Assembly: GCA_963704885.1 (NCBI GenBank)
Contig: CAVPIB010000001.1
Location: 640,001-704,000, forward strand
Reading direction: 5' to 3'
Origin: an uncultured Actinomycetes bacterium
GTDB lineage: Bacteria > Actinomycetota > UBA4738 > HRBIN12
DNA: 64,000 nucleotides
The notes under the pieces are model-generated. The model was not told the DNA's origin and did no database searches. It saw only the letters and a program-made list of their open reading frames with translations. Of the stretch, positions 35,895-63,520 are shown piece by piece. Each line of letters begins with the position of its first letter. Within the stretch, counting starts at the first letter, position 1. Position numbers and translations under genes: made by a program.

Positions 35895-35903
35895 CATCGC
35901 TTG

Positions 35904-37142
35904 ATGGCCCCACCTCGCGTCGCGGTGCTCTCGGTGCACACGTCGCCGCTTGACCAGCCCGGCTCGGGCGACTCCGGCGGGATGAACGTGTACATCCGCG
36001 CGGTGGCCGAACGTCTCACGGAGCACGAGATCGAGGTCGACCTGTTCACGCGCCGCCGCGGCGGAGACGTCGAGGACATCATCGACATCGCGCCGGGCGT
36101 TCGGGTGCTCAACGTGAAGGCCGGACCCTACGCCCCGATACCCAAGACCGATCTCCCTCGCTATCTGCCGGAGTTCCTTGGGGGCGTGTTGCGCCGCGCC
36201 CGTCAAGACGGGCGCGGCTACGACATCCTGCACAGCCATTACTGGTTGTCGGGCTGGGTCGGCAGCTCCGCCAAGGAGATCTGGGGCGTCCCGCTGGTGG
36301 CGTCGTTCCATACCCTCGGCAAGGTGAAGAACTACTCCTTAGCCGGTGGGGAGCAACCTGAGCCGCCCGCCCGTCTGGCCGGCGAGGAACGGGTGATCGC
36401 GGGCGCGGATCGGATCTTGGCGCCGACGCCGGCGGAGGCTGCGCAGCTTGTCGGTCTGTATCGGGCCGATCCCGGTCACATCCGGATCGTCCCGCCGGGC
36501 GTCGACCACACGATCTTCTTCCCGCGCAAGCGCGCCGACGCGCGTGAGCGGCTCCACCTCTCTGGCCTGAGGCTGGCCGTCTACGTGGGGCGACTCCAGC
36601 CGCACAAGGGACCCGACATCGCCGTGCGCACGCTGGCCGAGGCGGTGGCTCGCGATCCCGAGCTCACGCGCGACCTGATGCTCGCGATCGTCGGAGGTCC
36701 GAGCGGTACCGGCCAAGGGGTCGAGGTGGCGCGGCTCATGGAGCTCGCCTCCGCGCTCGGCGTCAGCCACCGGGTGATCCTCTTCCCGCCGTTGCCGCAG
36801 GCGCGCCTGGCCGATGTCTACGCGGCGGCGGACGTGGTGCTGGTCCCGTCCCGATCGGAGTCGTTCGGTCTGGTGGCGCTCGAGTCGCAGGCGTGCGGCA
36901 CGCCGGTCGTGGCGGCATCCGTCGGTGGTCTGCGGTTCGTGGTGTCTGACGGGCGCACCGGATTCCTGGTTGAGGGTCACGACCCGTCCGATCACGCCGA
37001 TCGCATGCTGCGGATCCTGGCCGACCCGGTCCTGGCCGCCGACCTGGGCGTCGCGGCCGCCCGCGAGGCGCTGAGGTTCACCTGGGACGCGACGGCGTCC
37101 CAGCTGGCCGGGATCTACCGCGAGCTGACGGCGGCATCGTGA
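35904..37142 (+). CDS. mshA: D-inositol-3-phosphate glycosyltransferase (mycothiol synthesis)
   Basis: SVHTSPLDQPGSGDSGGMNVY, HSHYWLSG, GRLQPHKGPD, SESFGLVALE. Confidence 0.9.
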   Translation: MAPPRVAVLSVHTSPLDQPGSGDSGGMNVYIRAVAERLTEHEIEVDLFTRRRGGDVEDIIDIAPGVRVLNVKAGPYAPIPKTDLPRYLPEFLGGVLRRARQDGRGYDILHSHYWLSGWVGSSAKEIWGVPLVASFHTLGKVKNYSLAGGEQPEPPARLAGEERVIAGADRILAPTPAEAAQLVGLYRADPGHIRIVPPGVDHTIFFPRKRADARERLHLSGLRLAVYVGRLQPHKGPDIAVRTLAEAVARDPELTRDLMLAIVGGPSGTGQGVEVARLMELASALGVSHRVILFPPLPQARLADVYAAADVVLVPSRSESFGLVALESQACGTPVVAASVGGLRFVVSDGRTGFLVEGHDPSDHADRMLRILADPVLAADLGVAAAREALRFTWDATASQLAGIYRELTAAS

Positions 37143-37681
37143 TAGCCGGCGAACGGGTCACGCTTCGCCCGGTCGCCGAACAGGACTACCCGTTGATACA
37201 GGCGTGGCAGAACGACCCCGAGGTCTGGTGGCTGATGGACTACGAGGGTCCGTTCTCCCTGGCGGACATAGCCGAGAGCGAGCGGCGCGCTCGCGAGGAG
37301 GGGCATCCCTACACCGTCGAGTTCGAGGGACGTCCCATCGGGCGGATCGGCTTGAACAACATCCGTCGCCGTGACCGGATCTGCGCCCTGTACGTGTTCC
37401 TCGGCGATCGCTCGGCGTGGGGCGACGGTCTGGGGACCGACGCCATCGACGCCTTGCTGGCCCATGCGTTCGACCGGTTCGATCTTCATCAGGTCGAGCT
37501 CTGGTCGTTGGCCGACAACGAACGGGCGATCCGCGCCTACCGGCATTGCGGGTTCCACGAGACGGCGCGGCTCGCGGATCGCTCTTGGAAGGACGGTCGA
37601 TGGGTGGATCACGTCGTCATGACGGTGACGCCCGAAGTGTTCCGTAAGACCCGCATGGCCCGTGACCAGCGGGAACGCTGA
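37139..37681 (+). CDS. RimJ/RimL-like GNAT acetyltransferase
   Basis: VTLRPV, WGDGLGT, NERAIRAYRHCGF. Confidence 0.85.
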   Translation: MIAGERVTLRPVAEQDYPLIQAWQNDPEVWWLMDYEGPFSLADIAESERRAREEGHPYTVEFEGRPIGRIGLNNIRRRDRICALYVFLGDRSAWGDGLGTDAIDALLAHAFDRFDLHQVELWSLADNERAIRAYRHCGFHETARLADRSWKDGRWVDHVVMTVTPEVFRKTRMARDQRER

Positions 37682-37768
37682 CATCGACCTCACGCTCCGC
37701 CGATTTGTCACTCTTTGTCTCAGGCCTTCTACCTGCGGATATATACCCTGACCTGCGGAAACATGAAG

Positions 37769-37797
37769 TTGACCGCGCCTCGACTCGCCGCTAGATT
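37769..37797 (+). promoter_or_regulatory. Sigma-A-type promoter of the putative ncRNA
   Basis: TTGACC-N17-TAGATT; predicted start near G37805; ACCTGCGGA direct repeats at 37731 and 37751 upstream. Confidence 0.75.
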
Positions 37798-37804
37798 TCG
37801 CTTC

Positions 37805-38173
37805 GCTCCAAGCAGTCGAAGTGCCGACGCGAAGGAACCGGACGGAGCACCGGAGAAGCCGCAAGGTGGATCAGGTGCTCCAGGCTCGGGTAGGCCGCAA
37901 GGCCGAAGCGAGCCGGCTGGGAAGGTCGCAAGGCCGGAACGGCGCCTCAGTCAGGCGAACCGCAAGGGGAGCAGGGCCGGGGCACCGCCGCCGGGCAAGC
38001 CGCAAGGCGAGCCCACGGCGGCGGGCCGTCGGGAACGCCGCAAGGCGGGCCCGCGGGGTCCGGGAGGCCGCGCGATGGCGCGGAGGTTGCTTGGAGCACC
38101 AGAGCCCGAGGGGCTGACGGTGGCTGGGAGCTTCGGTTCCCGGCGAGCCGGAGGTCCCTCGGGTTCTCTATTT
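37805..38173 (+). ncRNA. Unrecognised large structured RNA with six GCAA-tetraloop arms
   Basis: Closing stem 37805-37817/38085-38097; inner stem 37838-37843/38058-38063; CGCAAGG hairpin loops at 37861, 37897, 37928, 37962, 38002, 38040; many G-U pairs favour the + strand. Confidence 0.75.
38101..38173 (+). terminator. Long terminal hairpin with C(UUCG)G loop
   Basis: AGAGCCCGAGGG/CCCTCGGGTTCT outer stem, GCTGGGAGC-TTCG-GTTCCCGGC apex, followed by CTATTT. Confidence 0.65.
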
Positions 38174-38204
38174 CGTGACCCTCATCGGCTACTGTCCCGA
38201 TGCC

Positions 38205-38849
38205 ATGGGAACCGCAAGCACGCGACCGACCGACGCCTCCGCTCGTCGCGATCAGACCGTCGAGGTGGCGATGCGCCATTTCGCTGAGCGCGGGTACCGC
38301 GGCGCACGCGTCGAGGACATCGCCACAGAGGTCGGGGTCGCCAAGGGCACGGTCTTCCTGGACTTCACCTCGAAGGAAGGACTGTTCCTGGCGGCTTACC
38401 AACGGGCGGTCTCGATGCTCCCGGCGTGGCTGGATGCACCCTCGGAGATCGTGGAGCAGGGGTTCTGGGCCATCGTGGACTGGTGGCTGGAGCGCACGGA
38501 GGAGATGGGAGAACAGGACTGGGTGGCCAACCGGGTCTCCATGATGGGCCGCAACGACACGGGGTTGGGGCTCCGGCGGCCGATCGACAGGTTCATGCGG
38601 AGCGAGGATCCCTACGGCACGCTCGAGTTCGTGGAGTTCGGCGTGCGGCGCGGGGAGGTTCGCGACGATGTCGACGCCGAGATGCTCGCCTCCATGCTCG
38701 ATTGGCTGGCCGTGAGGTTCCAGGACGCGCTGGTCTCGGTGGACCTCGATCCGGGCCTGATCCACCGCAAGCCGGAACGCCGTTCGATGCGCATCAAGGA
38801 GTTCGTAGAGGTGCTGCGTGGCGGCATCGATGTCCAGCCCGAGGACTGA
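38205..38849 (+). CDS. TetR-family regulator
   Basis: FAERGYRGARVEDIATEVGVAKGTVF.DF.SKEGLF HTH. Confidence 0.88.
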   Translation: MGTASTRPTDASARRDQTVEVAMRHFAERGYRGARVEDIATEVGVAKGTVFLDFTSKEGLFLAAYQRAVSMLPAWLDAPSEIVEQGFWAIVDWWLERTEEMGEQDWVANRVSMMGRNDTGLGLRRPIDRFMRSEDPYGTLEFVEFGVRRGEVRDDVDAEMLASMLDWLAVRFQDALVSVDLDPGLIHRKPERRSMRIKEFVEVLRGGIDVQPED

Positions 38850-38891: not shown

Positions 38892-39722
38892 ATGACGGAT
38901 CGCAGGGTGGCTTTCCTGGGCGGCGGAAAGATGGGCGAGGCGCTCATCGCCGGCCTGATCCGGTCTGGCGGGCGGACGGTTGACGAGATCACGGTCACGT
39001 GCCGGCGCGAGGAGCGCGCTCGTGAGTTGGCCGGCAAGTACGGAGTCTCGGCCACGCTCGACAACGCCGAGGCTGCGCGCTGGGCCGACATGTTGGTGCT
39101 GATGGCCAAGCCGCAAGACATGGAGGTTCTGCTCGAGCAGATCCGGGGCGAGGTGACGCCCGACGACCTGATCGTGAGCTTCGCCGCAGGGCTACGAACC
39201 TCGTTCGCCGAGAAGCACCTCCCTGACGCGGTGCCCGTGGTGCGGGTGATGTCGAACGTGCCGGTGATGGTCGACGAAGCTATGTCGGTGATCGCGGCCG
39301 GATCACACGCCGAGGACGAGCACATGGTGCTGGTCGAGGAGCTGCTCGCCTACGTCGGCCGAGTGCTGCGGCTAAAGGAAGAGCACATGGACGCGGTGAC
39401 TGCCACGAGCGGCAGCGGTCCCGCCTACTTCTTCTTGCTGGCCGAGGCCATGATCGAGGCCTGTATCCTCCTGGGGCTGTCGCGCGACGTGGCGACCGAG
39501 CTGATCATCCAGACCATGCTCGGCTCCGCGAAGATGCTTCGCGACACAGGCAAGCACCCCGTGGAGCTCCGCGAGATGGTGACGTCGCCCGGTGGAACCA
39601 CCATCGCGGCGATCCGCCACCTGGAGGAGGCCGGCGTGCGAGCCGCGTTCCTGAACGCGATCGACGCCGCCTGCAAGCGAGGCCAGGAGCTGTCGCAGGG
39701 CGGCGATGAGGATGAGGAGTAG
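38892..39722 (+). CDS. proC: Pyrroline-5-carboxylate reductase
   Basis: LGGGKMG, RVMSNVP, SGSGPAY, VTSPGGTT. Confidence 0.95.
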   Translation: MTDRRVAFLGGGKMGEALIAGLIRSGGRTVDEITVTCRREERARELAGKYGVSATLDNAEAARWADMLVLMAKPQDMEVLLEQIRGEVTPDDLIVSFAAGLRTSFAEKHLPDAVPVVRVMSNVPVMVDEAMSVIAAGSHAEDEHMVLVEELLAYVGRVLRLKEEHMDAVTATSGSGPAYFFLLAEAMIEACILLGLSRDVATELIIQTMLGSAKMLRDTGKHPVELREMVTSPGGTTIAAIRHLEEAGVRAAFLNAIDAACKRGQELSQGGDEDEE

Positions 39723-61900: not shown

Positions 61901-62739
61901 AGGTCGAAGAACACCCCCTGCGCCCACGGCCAGACCCAGTTGTACCCGGGGCCGCGGAGGAAGCTCCCGATGATCGTGAGCGTGGCCCCGAAGCAGAAAA
62001 GGAGGGTGAACATGGTGATCGCGATCTTGCGATCACCCGGTTTCACGCTTGGGTTGCGGTCGACGAAGGGCACCGCCGCAAGTCCGACCAGGATGAAAGT
62101 GGGGATCGTGATCCCAGCGATCATGGGGTGGAAGTAACGCAGCAGCTCCTGCAGACCCAGGAAGTACCAGGGGGCCTTCGATGGGTTCGGCGTCAGGTTG
62201 GGGTTCGCAAGCTCACGCAGCGGCGCGTTCAGGAACGTGGAGAAGACGAGCACGCCGGCCGAGAGGATGAGCATGGCCACGAACTCCTCGATGAGCAGGT
62301 GCGGCATGACGTTCACTCGGTCACCCTGCTCGCGCTCAACCCGCTGGATGCCCTCGGGGGGCACCAGCGCCAAGAGACGGTGCTTGTCGTCCGCACCCTT
62401 CTTGGGCGTGGGGATGTTGCCTGTTGGAAGAGGCGCGGCGCGCACCGGCGAGGTGGTGGAAGCTGCCACCGCCATGACCGCTCCGACGCCCACCGGTACG
62501 GGCGCGGCTGCAGGCACTCCCGCGTCACCGTTGCCTGTCGGAGCGGCTGCGGCCGGAGTCGCCGCCGCCGCGGCGGCGGGGTGCTCGTGGACCTCGTCGG
62601 GATGTGCCTTGCGGTAGGCGGCTACGGCAGCCCGCCGAGCGCGGCCTTCGGCGATGCGCTTGTCCACTCCGGCCGTGGTCTGGGCGTCCAGCGTCTGCTG
62701 GTACACCTCCAGATCCTTCGGCAGCTCCTCCCAGTTCAC
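61897..62739 (-). CDS. Cytochrome b C-terminal subunit (subunit IV-like) with N-terminal extension
   Basis: PHLL, ANPNLTPNPSKAPWYFLGLQELL, VPFVDRNP; AGGAG RBS before GTG 62739. Confidence 0.85.
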   Translation of the reverse strand: MNWEELPKDLEVYQQTLDAQTTAGVDKRIAEGRARRAAVAAYRKAHPDEVHEHPAAAAAATPAAAAPTGNGDAGVPAAAPVPVGVGAVMAVAASTTSPVRAAPLPTGNIPTPKKGADDKHRLLALVPPEGIQRVEREQGDRVNVMPHLLIEEFVAMLILSAGVLVFSTFLNAPLRELANPNLTPNPSKAPWYFLGLQELLRYFHPMIAGITIPTFILVGLAAVPFVDRNPSVKPGDRKIAITMFTLLFCFGATLTIIGSFLRGPGYNWVWPWAQGVFFDL

Positions 62740-62749
62740 GATGTCGCTC

Positions 62750-63520
62750 CTAGAGTGGTCCGGAGATCCCGCCGTCCTTGCGGATCCGCCAGAAGTGGAC
62801 CGCAAGGAAGATCACCAACACGAACGGCAGCGCCAACACGTGGAGCACGTACCACCGGAGCAGCGTATTCGGCCCGACGACCACGCCGCCCAGGAGCAGG
62901 AAGTTGGCCTGCTTCGCGATGAACGGCGAATAGCCCGCGAGAGACGTGCCCACCGTGACCGCCCAGATCGCCAGCTGGTCCCAAGGCAGCAGGTAGCCGG
63001 TGAACGAAAGACCGAGCGTTAGGAACAGCAGGATCACGCCCACGACCCAGTTGAACTCGCGCGGTGGCTTGTAGGCACCCGTGTAGAAGACGCGTGCCAT
63101 GTGCAGCGTCACCGACAGAACCATCAGGTGCGCGCCCCATCGGTGCAGGTTGCGGACCAGGTCGCCGAAGAAGACCGATGTCCTGATGGACTGCATGTCG
63201 GCGTAGGCGACCGCACCACCCAGGTCGGCCATCGGCCGGTAGAAGAACATCAGGAAGATGCCCGTGACGGTCAGCAGGATGAACAGGAAGAACGAGAGTC
63301 CGCCCAGGCAGAACGTGTAGGTCAGCTTCAGCCCGTGGCGCTTCACCTTCACCGGGTGCAGGTGGTAGAGCACGTTGTTCATGGTTGCTAGCGCGCGGTC
63401 GCGTGAGGTGTCCTTGTAGCCCTTGCGGAAGAGCGACCCCGGCCGGAAGATCGACTTCCAGACCTCGGTTTCTCGGATGCGGTCGCCCACCTCGCTCGGT
63501 GACGGCGGCTTCAGCTTCAC
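62750..63520 (-). CDS. Cytochrome b6-like N-terminal subunit
   Basis: [46 protein letters not shown]. Confidence 0.92.

Follow-up and report, generated by a model that had tools for sequence, protein, structure and literature searches.

Between an acetyltransferase gene and a TetR regulator gene of an uncultured actinomycete lies what is very probably a structured small RNA of about 365 nucleotides (nt), encoded once in the genome and transcribed independently. The window, meaning the whole stretch of DNA analysed here, is 64,000 nt of contig CAVPIB010000001.1 (assembly GCA_963704885.1, positions 640,001 to 704,000), and the RNA occupies positions 37805 to about 38169 of its + strand. We read it, with the same high confidence, as the multi-arm form of a family that is absent from Rfam 15 and sits beside an mshA-like glycosyltransferase gene. 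Far from being unique, the RNA is the product of remodelling, in this lineage, of a widespread family of about 270 nt whose core is quite different. One RNA-library contig starts at 37805 and another stops at 38170, and the start predicted from the promoter is the same 5′ end. Coordinates below are those of the window, + strand, unless another locus is named.

Fold, promoter and transcripts of the RNA

A sequence-only reading of this stretch had described a closing stem, six arms with GCAA tetraloops and internal loops, and a 3′ hairpin with a UUCG loop. All of these are recovered in the minimum free energy (MFE) structure. The MFE of 37805-38173 is -244.9 kcal/mol, compared with a mean of -184.9 ± 5.4 in 100 dinucleotide shuffles (z = -11.06), none of which folded as low, and the MFE structure is identical to the centroid. 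The minus strand of the same stretch gives a z of only -3.80.

Relatives bear the fold out, as the covariation check proposed for it demanded. We imposed the MFE structure of the window RNA on an alignment (A3) of 13 arm-type RNAs, 11 from the genus of the window and one each from two other genera. In it, 92.2% of the cells stay paired, as opposed to 20-45% when the partners are slid by one to three columns. Compensatory changes occur in 21 pairs, compared with 8.5 ± 1.8 in shuffles, and none of 500 shuffles reaches 21. It should be noted that the closing stem (P1) and most of the 3′ hairpin are invariant in A3 and hence uninformative there; their support comes from the wider alignment of the standard form described below. 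In P1, a 13-base-pair (bp) stem predicted between 37805-37817 and 38085-38097, all pairs are unchanged in the 13 arm-type RNAs, and 5 of the 13 show compensatory changes among 24 standard-form RNAs (columns 1-13 with 202-214).

Above P1 the pairing can be drawn in two ways. The MFE pairs the 5′ strand of a lower rod (37821-37835) with 38068-38081. The alternative, a small hairpin of its own at 38068-38084 (CCGCGC-GAUG-GCGCGG), had been proposed from the sequence and is missing from the MFE; it is nevertheless about as well supported in relatives as the pairing that displaces it. Across the 13 related genomes, the small hairpin has 83.3% of cells paired with three compensated pairs and the MFE helix 85.3% with two, so that support for the two is about equal. 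The junction is closed by CCGGAC/GUCCGG (37838-37843 with 38058-38063), paired in 88.2% of cells on A3.

The six arms share one plan, an outer helix, a symmetric purine-rich internal loop, an inner helix of 2-4 bp and a tetraloop. Arm 1 (37844-37881) has an 8-bp outer helix, a GAA/GGA loop, GCC/GGU and GCAA at 37861-37864; 4 of 10 outer pairs show compensatory changes. Arm 2 (37883-37914) has 6 bp, a GGUA/GAAG loop, GGCC/GGCC and GCAA at 37897-37900, with 4 of 6 outer pairs compensated. In arm 3 (37916-37943) a 4-bp outer helix is followed by GGAA/GGAA, GGUC/GGCC and GCAA at 37928-37931, both of its helices (8 and 9) being 98.1% paired. Arm 4 (37944-37983), with a stepped helix, a GAA/GGA loop, CC/GG and GCAA at 37962-37965, is the most weakly conserved (76.9-79.5% paired in helices 10 and 11). 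Arm 5 (37985-38024) consists of a bulged 12-bp outer helix in which 4 of 12 pairs are compensated, an AA/GA loop, GCC/GGC and GCAA at 38002-38005, and arm 6 (38026-38056) of a 3+4-bp outer helix, an AA/GG loop, CGCC/GGCG and GCAA at 38040-38043. The tetraloop is GCAA in all 13 arm-type RNAs in arms 1, 3, 4, 5 and 6. In arm 2 it is GCAA in 11, GAAA in one and GCGA in one.

The 3′ hairpin (38101-38167) has 15 + 4 + 9 bp (28 bp, interrupted), two small purine internal loops and a UUCG loop. It is 99.7% paired on A3, and no other part of the RNA is conserved as widely: it alone has a BLAST match across the order (80-94% identity); its apex shows compensatory changes and insertions among 33 sequences. 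A short, interrupted U-rich tail (38168-38173) follows, and the 3′ end is likely at about 38169-38170. A scan of 37400-38500 gave no canonical terminator, the U run of UUCUCUAUUU being interrupted. The motif CCGCAAGG occurs 13 times in the window (2.86 expected), five of these inside the RNA. Of the eight sites outside it, four cluster at 62607-63421, about 800 nt, on both strands; that region has no Rfam match.

The promoter proposed from the sequence, TTGACC and TAGATT separated by 17 nt (37769-37797) with a start at about 37805, proved to be the only sigma-70-type site in 37400-38500 (one found, 0.0 expected in shuffles). Its geometry is general: TTGACN-N16-18-TANNNT stands at -34 to -37 from the first base of P1 in all 43 loci with enough upstream sequence. 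Two boxes lie further upstream. Box A (TTGTCACTCTTT, 37705-37716) is about 100 nt from the RNA start, and with up to two mismatches it is found at -98 to -111 in 36 of the 43 orthologous loci. Box B is present in two copies (37729-37758; CTACCTGCGG at 37729-37738 and CTGACCTGCGG at 37748-37758). At the same tolerance 42 of the 43 have it, most often at -57 and -77, and 22 have at least two copies.

The boxes are not confined to this locus. Box A occurs four to five times in the genome that holds the window (G000), three times upstream of promoters of putative small RNAs. At each of two such putative genes, G000:C4:254893-255070 (+) and G000:C4:178050-178325 (-), box A (TTGTCACTCTTT) is accompanied by a TTGACN-N17/18-TAnnTT promoter and by a hairpin resembling a terminator. 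CCCC loops cap two hairpins of the first, after which comes a small Cys-rich open reading frame (ORF). Neither has an Rfam match at the gathering score. The 6C model gives two matches in the genome (28.3 and 23.5 bits), both below its cut-off of 47, the weaker of them at C4:178050-178325; a 6C-like label given by eye to C4:254893 was dropped, as neither match falls there. Box B (CTGACCTGCGG) is also seen just upstream of other promoters of the genome, for example at a carD-like gene, beside a tRNA gene and where there is an inverted repeat like CIRCE; its genomic sites include G000:C7:3126, C4:612145, C19:72899, C7:19854, C8:3967 and C4:674795. The 10-mer TGACCTGCGG has 14 occurrences in the genome, about eight of them intergenic. 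On the other box-A and box-B loci Rfam finds tRNA only. Box B may be the site of a regulator of highly expressed genes, and the sharing of the boxes with other putative small-RNA genes points to a regulator of stable-RNA promoters.

Public sequencing runs that contain part of the stretch number 20, of which 19 are recorded as RNA. Contigs of four RNA runs from three studies were aligned to 37400-38600, and RNA libraries of all three studies yielded contigs carrying sequence of 37805-38170. One contig from run X1 (268 nt) covers 37818-38085 and one from X2 (276 nt) 37821-38096, both with no mismatch. X6 gave many short pieces across 37805-37977; one begins exactly at 37805, and its loose end, read as the reverse complement of 37839-37856, looks like a fold-back of the cDNA end. 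A contig of X5 terminates at 38170 and goes on with 22 A. The contig ends at 37818 and 38085 (X1, adapter at both ends) and 38117 (X2) were rejected as RNA ends, since adapter sequence there marks them as fragment ends, and record 7 of X5 (depth 789.6, eight mismatches) was assigned by its loose end to a standard-form relative instead of the window RNA. No contig lies over 37400-37804 or 38171-38600, which we did not count as evidence, assembled contigs being silent on gaps. The sequence is present in RNA libraries and both ends are hinted at by contigs which, being assembled, cannot prove strand, level or ends.

The RNA stands alone in its genome, as had been claimed. BLAST finds one copy in the 3.0 Mb (97% complete), and a covariance model of the shared 3′ module (R2) has a single match there, 99.4 bits, in the window; a dispersed (REP- or MITE-like) repeat is thereby excluded. 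Nor is the RNA catalogued, in agreement with the earlier failure to recognise any known signature. Rfam 15 has no match on the whole window at the gathering score, and on the RNA at E up to 10 gives only chance-level microRNA and RT-13 matches below 20 bits. Twelve orthologous loci at gathering and the paralog loci have none, three loci of family f18 have none at E up to 1, and a standard-form RNA searched at E up to 10 has no relevant match. The models of 6S (RF00013) and Ms1 (RF02566) match nothing in the genome at E up to 1. Searches of the literature with conserved strings of the core, P1 and 3′ hairpin and with keyword descriptions found nothing in main texts, supplements being outside their scope. 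The family is absent from Rfam 15 and, supplements excepted, appears to be undescribed in the literature searched.

The flanking genes are those named in the sequence-only reading of this mshA-proC region: a glycosyltransferase of type GT4 (mshA-like, 35901-37142), a GNAT acetyltransferase (Acetyltransf_3 type, 37139-37681), the TetR regulator (38175-38849) and pyrroline-5-carboxylate reductase (ProC, 38892-39722). Such a setting calls to mind a cis element, namely a terminator or 3′ untranslated region belonging to GNAT or a leader for TetR, or else a dispersed repeat or a hidden coding region. The RNA begins 124 nt past the stop codon of GNAT, and the last base of its 3′ hairpin is 8 nt ahead of the first possible TetR start; with so weak a U tail some read-through is likely, and TetR is adjacent in 43 of the 48 loci of the family to which the window belongs (GT4 in 48). 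GNAT, however, is adjacent in just 18 of these. In other families of the order (18 loci, mostly shorter) GT4 is adjacent in 11, GNAT in five and TetR in none, the RNA still being there, and in the seven f18 loci GNAT is adjacent in six and GT4 and TetR in none. A riboswitch or other cis leader is not what the loci look like, given a promoter of their own at a fixed distance in 43 of 43, a terminator hairpin of their own and a downstream gene that differs between families. The single copy and the empty output (0 rows) of a tandem-repeat finder do not fit a repeat. The lengths of the 13 arm-type RNAs, 364-381, differ by numbers that are not multiples of three; no reading frame is preserved among relatives, which argues against coding. 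We regard a cis element as extremely improbable. The TetR gene starts only a few bases from the 3′ end of the RNA, and read-through of the weak terminator could couple the two.

One frame with several interiors

BLAST with 37769-38173 matched 58 of 61 genomes, own included. Full-length matches (70-87% identity) are limited to the genus of the window and a few other genera; in other lineages only the first ~100 and last ~90 bases match, the latter with 80-94% identity even in other families. After removal of L026, L035 and L048 (cut by contig ends or false matches), 45 orthologous RNAs could be delimited: 24 of a standard form, 20 of the arm type and one divergent (L036). The forms have a common frame. 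Its upstream part is made up of boxes A and B and the TTGACC-N17-TAnnTT promoter; within the RNA it comprises the closing stem of 13 bp, a lower region of internal loops in which GGAACC occurs, and the 3′ hairpin, which is conserved in sequence and doubles as terminator.

The standard form is an RNA of about 270 nt with an interior of about 165 nt. It is the form of most lineages, across the order and in some other families of the phylum. Mean column identity is 75% over the whole RNA and 82% in the core, with long invariant runs, and 37 of the 86 pairs predicted in the consensus fold show a compensatory change. The arm form, in which 3-8 hairpin arms stand in place of the core, occurs in the genus of the window and at least nine other genera of its family. 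By promoter geometry, boxes, P1, 3′ hairpin and the syntenic mshA-like GT4 gene, the window RNA has the family frame and is the ortholog of the ~270-nt standard RNA, its core remodelled in the lineage.

The extent of each form was followed with two in-house models, R1 of the conserved core (about 142 positions) and R2 of the 3′ module, whose E-values are rough; the genome samples are not censuses. R1 has no match at E up to 1 in the own genome, which makes the window RNA a variant of the family rather than a standard-form RNA. Where the sample consisted mostly of the family and order of the window, R1 is found in 87 of 151 genomes, with none in six other genomes of the genus or in 16 of genus g21. 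In a phylum-wide sample R1 is found in 11 of 151 genomes and R2 in 21 of the same 151. These 21 are the own genome, 5/5 others of the family, 4/5 others of the order, f11, f52, 7/10 of f18 and two weak ones in f14. Family f52 rests on a single unpublished genome, G300 (L093; L255 in the synteny count).

The statement on f52 is the only one that depends on an unpublished genome by itself. The other such genomes are G008 (L003) in A3 and the counts of arm conservation; G034 (L014) in the arm counts and alignment A5; G049 (L041) in alignments A1, A2 and A4, hence in R1 and R2; G041 (L094, L247) in the GNAT tree and synteny; G116 (L082) among the paralogs; and G059, G071, G093, G109, G117, G137, G141 and G151 in the R1 tallies of the sample dominated by family and order.

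Two further forms were seen. R1 revealed a short paralog at other loci in some genera (L079-L086, e.g., L080:1001-1123, minus strand). It is a 123-nt core minus one helix, with a closing stem of its own (GGCCCCAGG/CCUGGGGYC), no separate 3′ hairpin, the same box A and an inverted box B. Genome G116 has two copies 1.5 kb apart. The f18 form (L095-L098, L250-L258), from a family outside the order of the window, has the same frame and a larger core. It follows a GNAT gene and a second ORF that was taken, by eye only, for a YbjN-like gene. One f18 locus, L097, has its 3′ hairpin capped by an arm-like module whose loop is GCAA.

The family adds to the actinobacteria a conserved structured RNA that is missing from current Rfam, with a 3′ module in nearly all sampled genomes of the order. 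It also amounts to an experiment of nature on how an RNA evolves: a gene with unchanged promoter, ends and neighbours has as its interior either a nearly invariant core or 3-8 copies of one core hairpin. Comparing the core form with the arm form should tell which part of the RNA works.

Origin and possible role of the arms

That the arms might be an amplified domain had been suggested from the window sequence alone, and the arm module does match one invariant element of the ancestral core. The arm consensus is close to gCCGGGaAgGCC-GCAA-GGCgggcccGGg. A model (R3) was built from 67 arms of 12 arm-type RNAs, no standard-form sequence being included, and run on the 24 standard-form loci (47 kb, both strands, filters off). 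Its top match in 23 of them is one core site, CCUGGGAAAGCCGUAAGGCGAACUGGGC, the invariant GCC-GUAA-GGC element, with 19.7-23.0 bits; the best match elsewhere in the 47 kb has 14.9 bits. The one exception is L025, in which a C of the inner helix is replaced by U. The string GCCGUAAGG is invariant in 23 of the 24 standard RNAs and is kept in the short paralog and the f18 form.

The arms thus look like amplified copies of a single ancestral core module. From these matches, serial duplication of one core module, with loss of the rest of the core, is the probable source of the arm form. The duplicated module would have been a short helix, a purine-rich internal loop, a second helix (2-4 bp, with CC/GG at its end) and a GNRA loop with a closing C-G pair. 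In a tree of the GNAT proteins (27 rows, L059 and L067 having been dropped as duplicates of genomes already in), one branch, whose support of 88/89 is under the star threshold, has all 11 arm-type rows to one side. Only two of the arm-type genera have the GNAT gene; a single origin of the arm form would agree with the tree, which says little on the other eight.

Arm number varies between relatives, which the sequence-only reading had listed as a thing to look for, and the range between genera is 3-8. Six tetraloop arms are in the MFE of L001-L013, L015 and L020, three in that of L014, four in L017, four also in L016, though its sequence contains more, and eight in L046. L028 has three arms with UUCG and three with GNRA (two GCGA, one GAAA). 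The loops of the 13 aligned RNAs are GCAA in 76 of 78 cases, while the stems vary. Within the arm domain, mean identity is 0.946 in hairpin loops, 0.878 in stems and 0.837 in internal loops and junction.

What might such an RNA do? Our proposal, which we hold tentatively and with somewhat less than even confidence, is that the window RNA may act multivalently on a protein, as decoy or scaffold. A putative protein partner would recognise the module itself, a purine loop below a C-G-closed GNRA loop. The ancestral RNA would display it once, within the folded core; the window RNA would display it six times on one stable transcript, and such a six-fold display would make it a multivalent decoy or scaffold, titrating or gathering the partner. 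The frame would provide expression, stability and perhaps a second binding site. What we weighed toward recognition of a repeated unit is that whole genera dispense with a nearly invariant core and replace it with copies of one element of that core.

Several points weigh against the decoy or scaffold. The library contigs, as said, do not prove the ends, strand or level of the RNA. The parts conserved in all forms are the frame and the 3′ hairpin, not the arms. The internal-loop and junction bases are the least conserved class of the arm domain, which is not as predicted for a sequence-specific site in the purine loops. The number of arms is itself inconstant. Hairpins of the types C(GCAA)G and C(UUCG)G are unusually stable, and with UUCG on arms of L028 the loops are perhaps kept for stability, not recognition. 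Lastly, the rest of the nearly invariant core is lost without visible replacement; if the function resides in the core, the role of the arm form may be reduced or altered.

Much of this would be expected if function lay only in the frame (P1, lower loop and 3′ hairpin, e.g., as a protein-binding site) and the interior were a replaceable segment that adds stability, the arms then being stable filler grown by duplication in a G+C-rich genome, with no part in binding. The frame alone is common to the standard, short paralog, f18 and arm-type forms. It is universal, and its 3′ hairpin is conserved beyond the need of a terminator, 80-94% identical across the order with an apex that varies and takes insertions. 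This, together with UUCG on half of the arms of L028, we weighed toward the frame, and the 3-8 arms and their poorly conserved internal loops are in line with it. Filler, however, fits poorly with the standard core, which at 82% mean column identity is among the most conserved RNA stretches seen and hardly a dispensable spacer. Nor was the replacement arbitrary: it matches one invariant core element and keeps the same tetraloop in 76 of 78 arms. On balance a role for the frame only seems to us somewhat unlikely.

The arms could also act on RNA and not on protein. GNRA loops can dock into minor-groove receptors such as tandem C-G pairs, and ornate RNA assemblies that form oligomeric particles are recently described analogues. 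The window RNA has six GNRA loops on one junction, tandem C-G pairs in every arm as possible receptors and a very stable, well-defined fold (MFE and centroid coinciding); docking of the loops, within or between molecules, would yield a compact or oligomeric particle. UUCG loops, however, do not dock in the GNRA manner, and they stand in place of GNRA on three arms of L028. An architecture of RNA only is, in our judgement, quite improbable.

The decoy or scaffold proposal can be carried further. The family would then be a new global regulatory RNA class of the order, with the purine-loop/C(GNRA)G hairpin as its recognition unit, and the lineage of the window would have made a single-site RNA into a six-valent sponge for the same partner. 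This extended version is a long shot, decidedly improbable as a whole. If true, it would offer a rare opportunity to trace, from genus to genus, how a sponge RNA emerged from an ancestor that was not a sponge. Candidate partners would be the transcription machinery or a factor that normally reads a hairpin of ribosomal RNA (rRNA).

On the latter, the inner part of arm 2 (helix and loop, 11 nt, GGCCGCAAGGC) matches exactly a hairpin in the 16S rRNA of a genome of the same genus (L265:2373-2400, about model position 865-892), whose flanks are purine-rich too. The arm model finds the same site in the 16S rRNA of 5/5 genomes, but with 12.5 bits and E = 0.68; the lead is weak and the match may be chance. 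A family search of G000 itself gave no 16S rRNA, which may be missing from the assembly. It was also seen that a gene for a RimJ/RimL-type acetyltransferase is often adjacent to the RNA.

Comparison with known RNAs

A known RNA that resembles the family is Ms1 (RF02566), likewise actinobacterial and stand-alone, about 300 nt long, with a strong promoter of its own, paired ends, a broad taxonomic spread and poor conservation at the sequence level. The Ms1 model matches nothing in the genome at E up to 1 or on the RNA at E up to 10, a weak test, as the Ms1 survey states that the Rfam model reaches only close relatives of mycobacteria (PMC9130861). Ms1 loci are defined there by synteny with a HAD-IB hydrolase, paired with an oxidoreductase, Fic, CpaE or a glycoside hydrolase (PMC9130861, Tables 1-3), and 824 predicted loci are listed in its Supplementary Table 2. 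The neighbours of the window RNA are instead GT4, GNAT, TetR and ProC. Ms1 of mycobacteria and Streptomyces binds the core of RNA polymerase.

The own genome has a HAD-IB gene of 281 aa on the same contig, about 185 kb from the RNA. The 211-nt intergenic region after it (G000:C1:492709-492919; L226:2305-2515) contains an element of about 115 nt with a BLAST match in 30 of 41 genomes, G000 included, from six families of the order. Its fold z is -2.9 on the + and -4.2 on the - strand, and Rfam gives no relevant match on the region. The element is a candidate for a short counterpart of Ms1.

6S (RF00013), an abundant regulatory RNA, is like the family in being closed by paired ends, and the standard form is predicted to be a long irregular hairpin. 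The 6S model, however, has no match in the genome, and the window RNA has at its centre a six-way junction and no large central bubble. Resemblance to 6S is not a prerequisite, as CoRP makes clear. CoRP is a polymerase-binding RNA of 516 nt, found by RIP-seq, that lies between tRNA genes and is reported only in Corynebacterium (PMC11077062). Like the window RNA it is actinobacterial, large and structured; it is also genus-restricted and a recent find, and it shows that polymerase-binding RNAs need not resemble 6S or Ms1. CoRP is set apart from the window RNA by its size, locus and genus.

The family might then be a polymerase-binding RNA, the counterpart in this order of 6S, Ms1 or CoRP: abundant, bound to core or holoenzyme and adjusting the polymerase pool of stationary phase. 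It stands alone, is strongly promoted, measures some 270-370 nt, has paired ends and is kept across an order, in a genome, 97% complete, with no match to 6S or Ms1. The Ms1 survey lists 146 genera with predicted Ms1 (PMC9130861), and the CoRP report predicts undiscovered classes in actinobacteria that have neither 6S nor Ms1 (PMC11077062). Box B, moreover, also stands upstream of a carD-like gene and beside a tRNA gene. On the other side, no Rfam model matches the RNA or a standard ortholog at E up to 10, or the f18 loci at E up to 1; synteny is with GT4 and GNAT, not with the HAD-IB hydrolase and oxidoreductase given in Tables 1-3 of the survey (PMC9130861). The HAD-IB locus of the genome has its separate conserved element, so the niche may already be filled, and a mimic of an open promoter would not be expected to tolerate the turning of its central domain into a six-way junction. 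Polymerase binding therefore strikes us as unlikely. The proposal of undiscovered polymerase-binding RNAs in actinobacteria without 6S and Ms1 nonetheless gains in this family a concrete candidate, and in the HAD-IB-locus element a second.

OLE, ROOL, GOLLD and raiA are large ornate bacterial RNAs, the function of which could not be read from their sequence. They are abundant and, like the family, highly structured, strongly conserved and non-coding. The window RNA has no Rfam match to them, is smaller, and has a modular and variable interior.

The decoy or scaffold proposal finds its nearest parallel in the CsrB/RsmZ sponges, which similarly carry several copies of a short hairpin motif and a terminator on one transcript, the copy number varying among relatives. 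The motif differs, GGA loops in the sponges as opposed to C(GCAA)G with a purine internal loop here, and in the window RNA the repeats replace the conserved core of an older RNA family. CsrA (PF02599) has no match in the own genome, 97% complete. With no GGA loops and no CsrA, membership in CsrB/RsmZ is ruled out, and the sponge-like logic is left standing: in its layout the window RNA is most like a sponge RNA.

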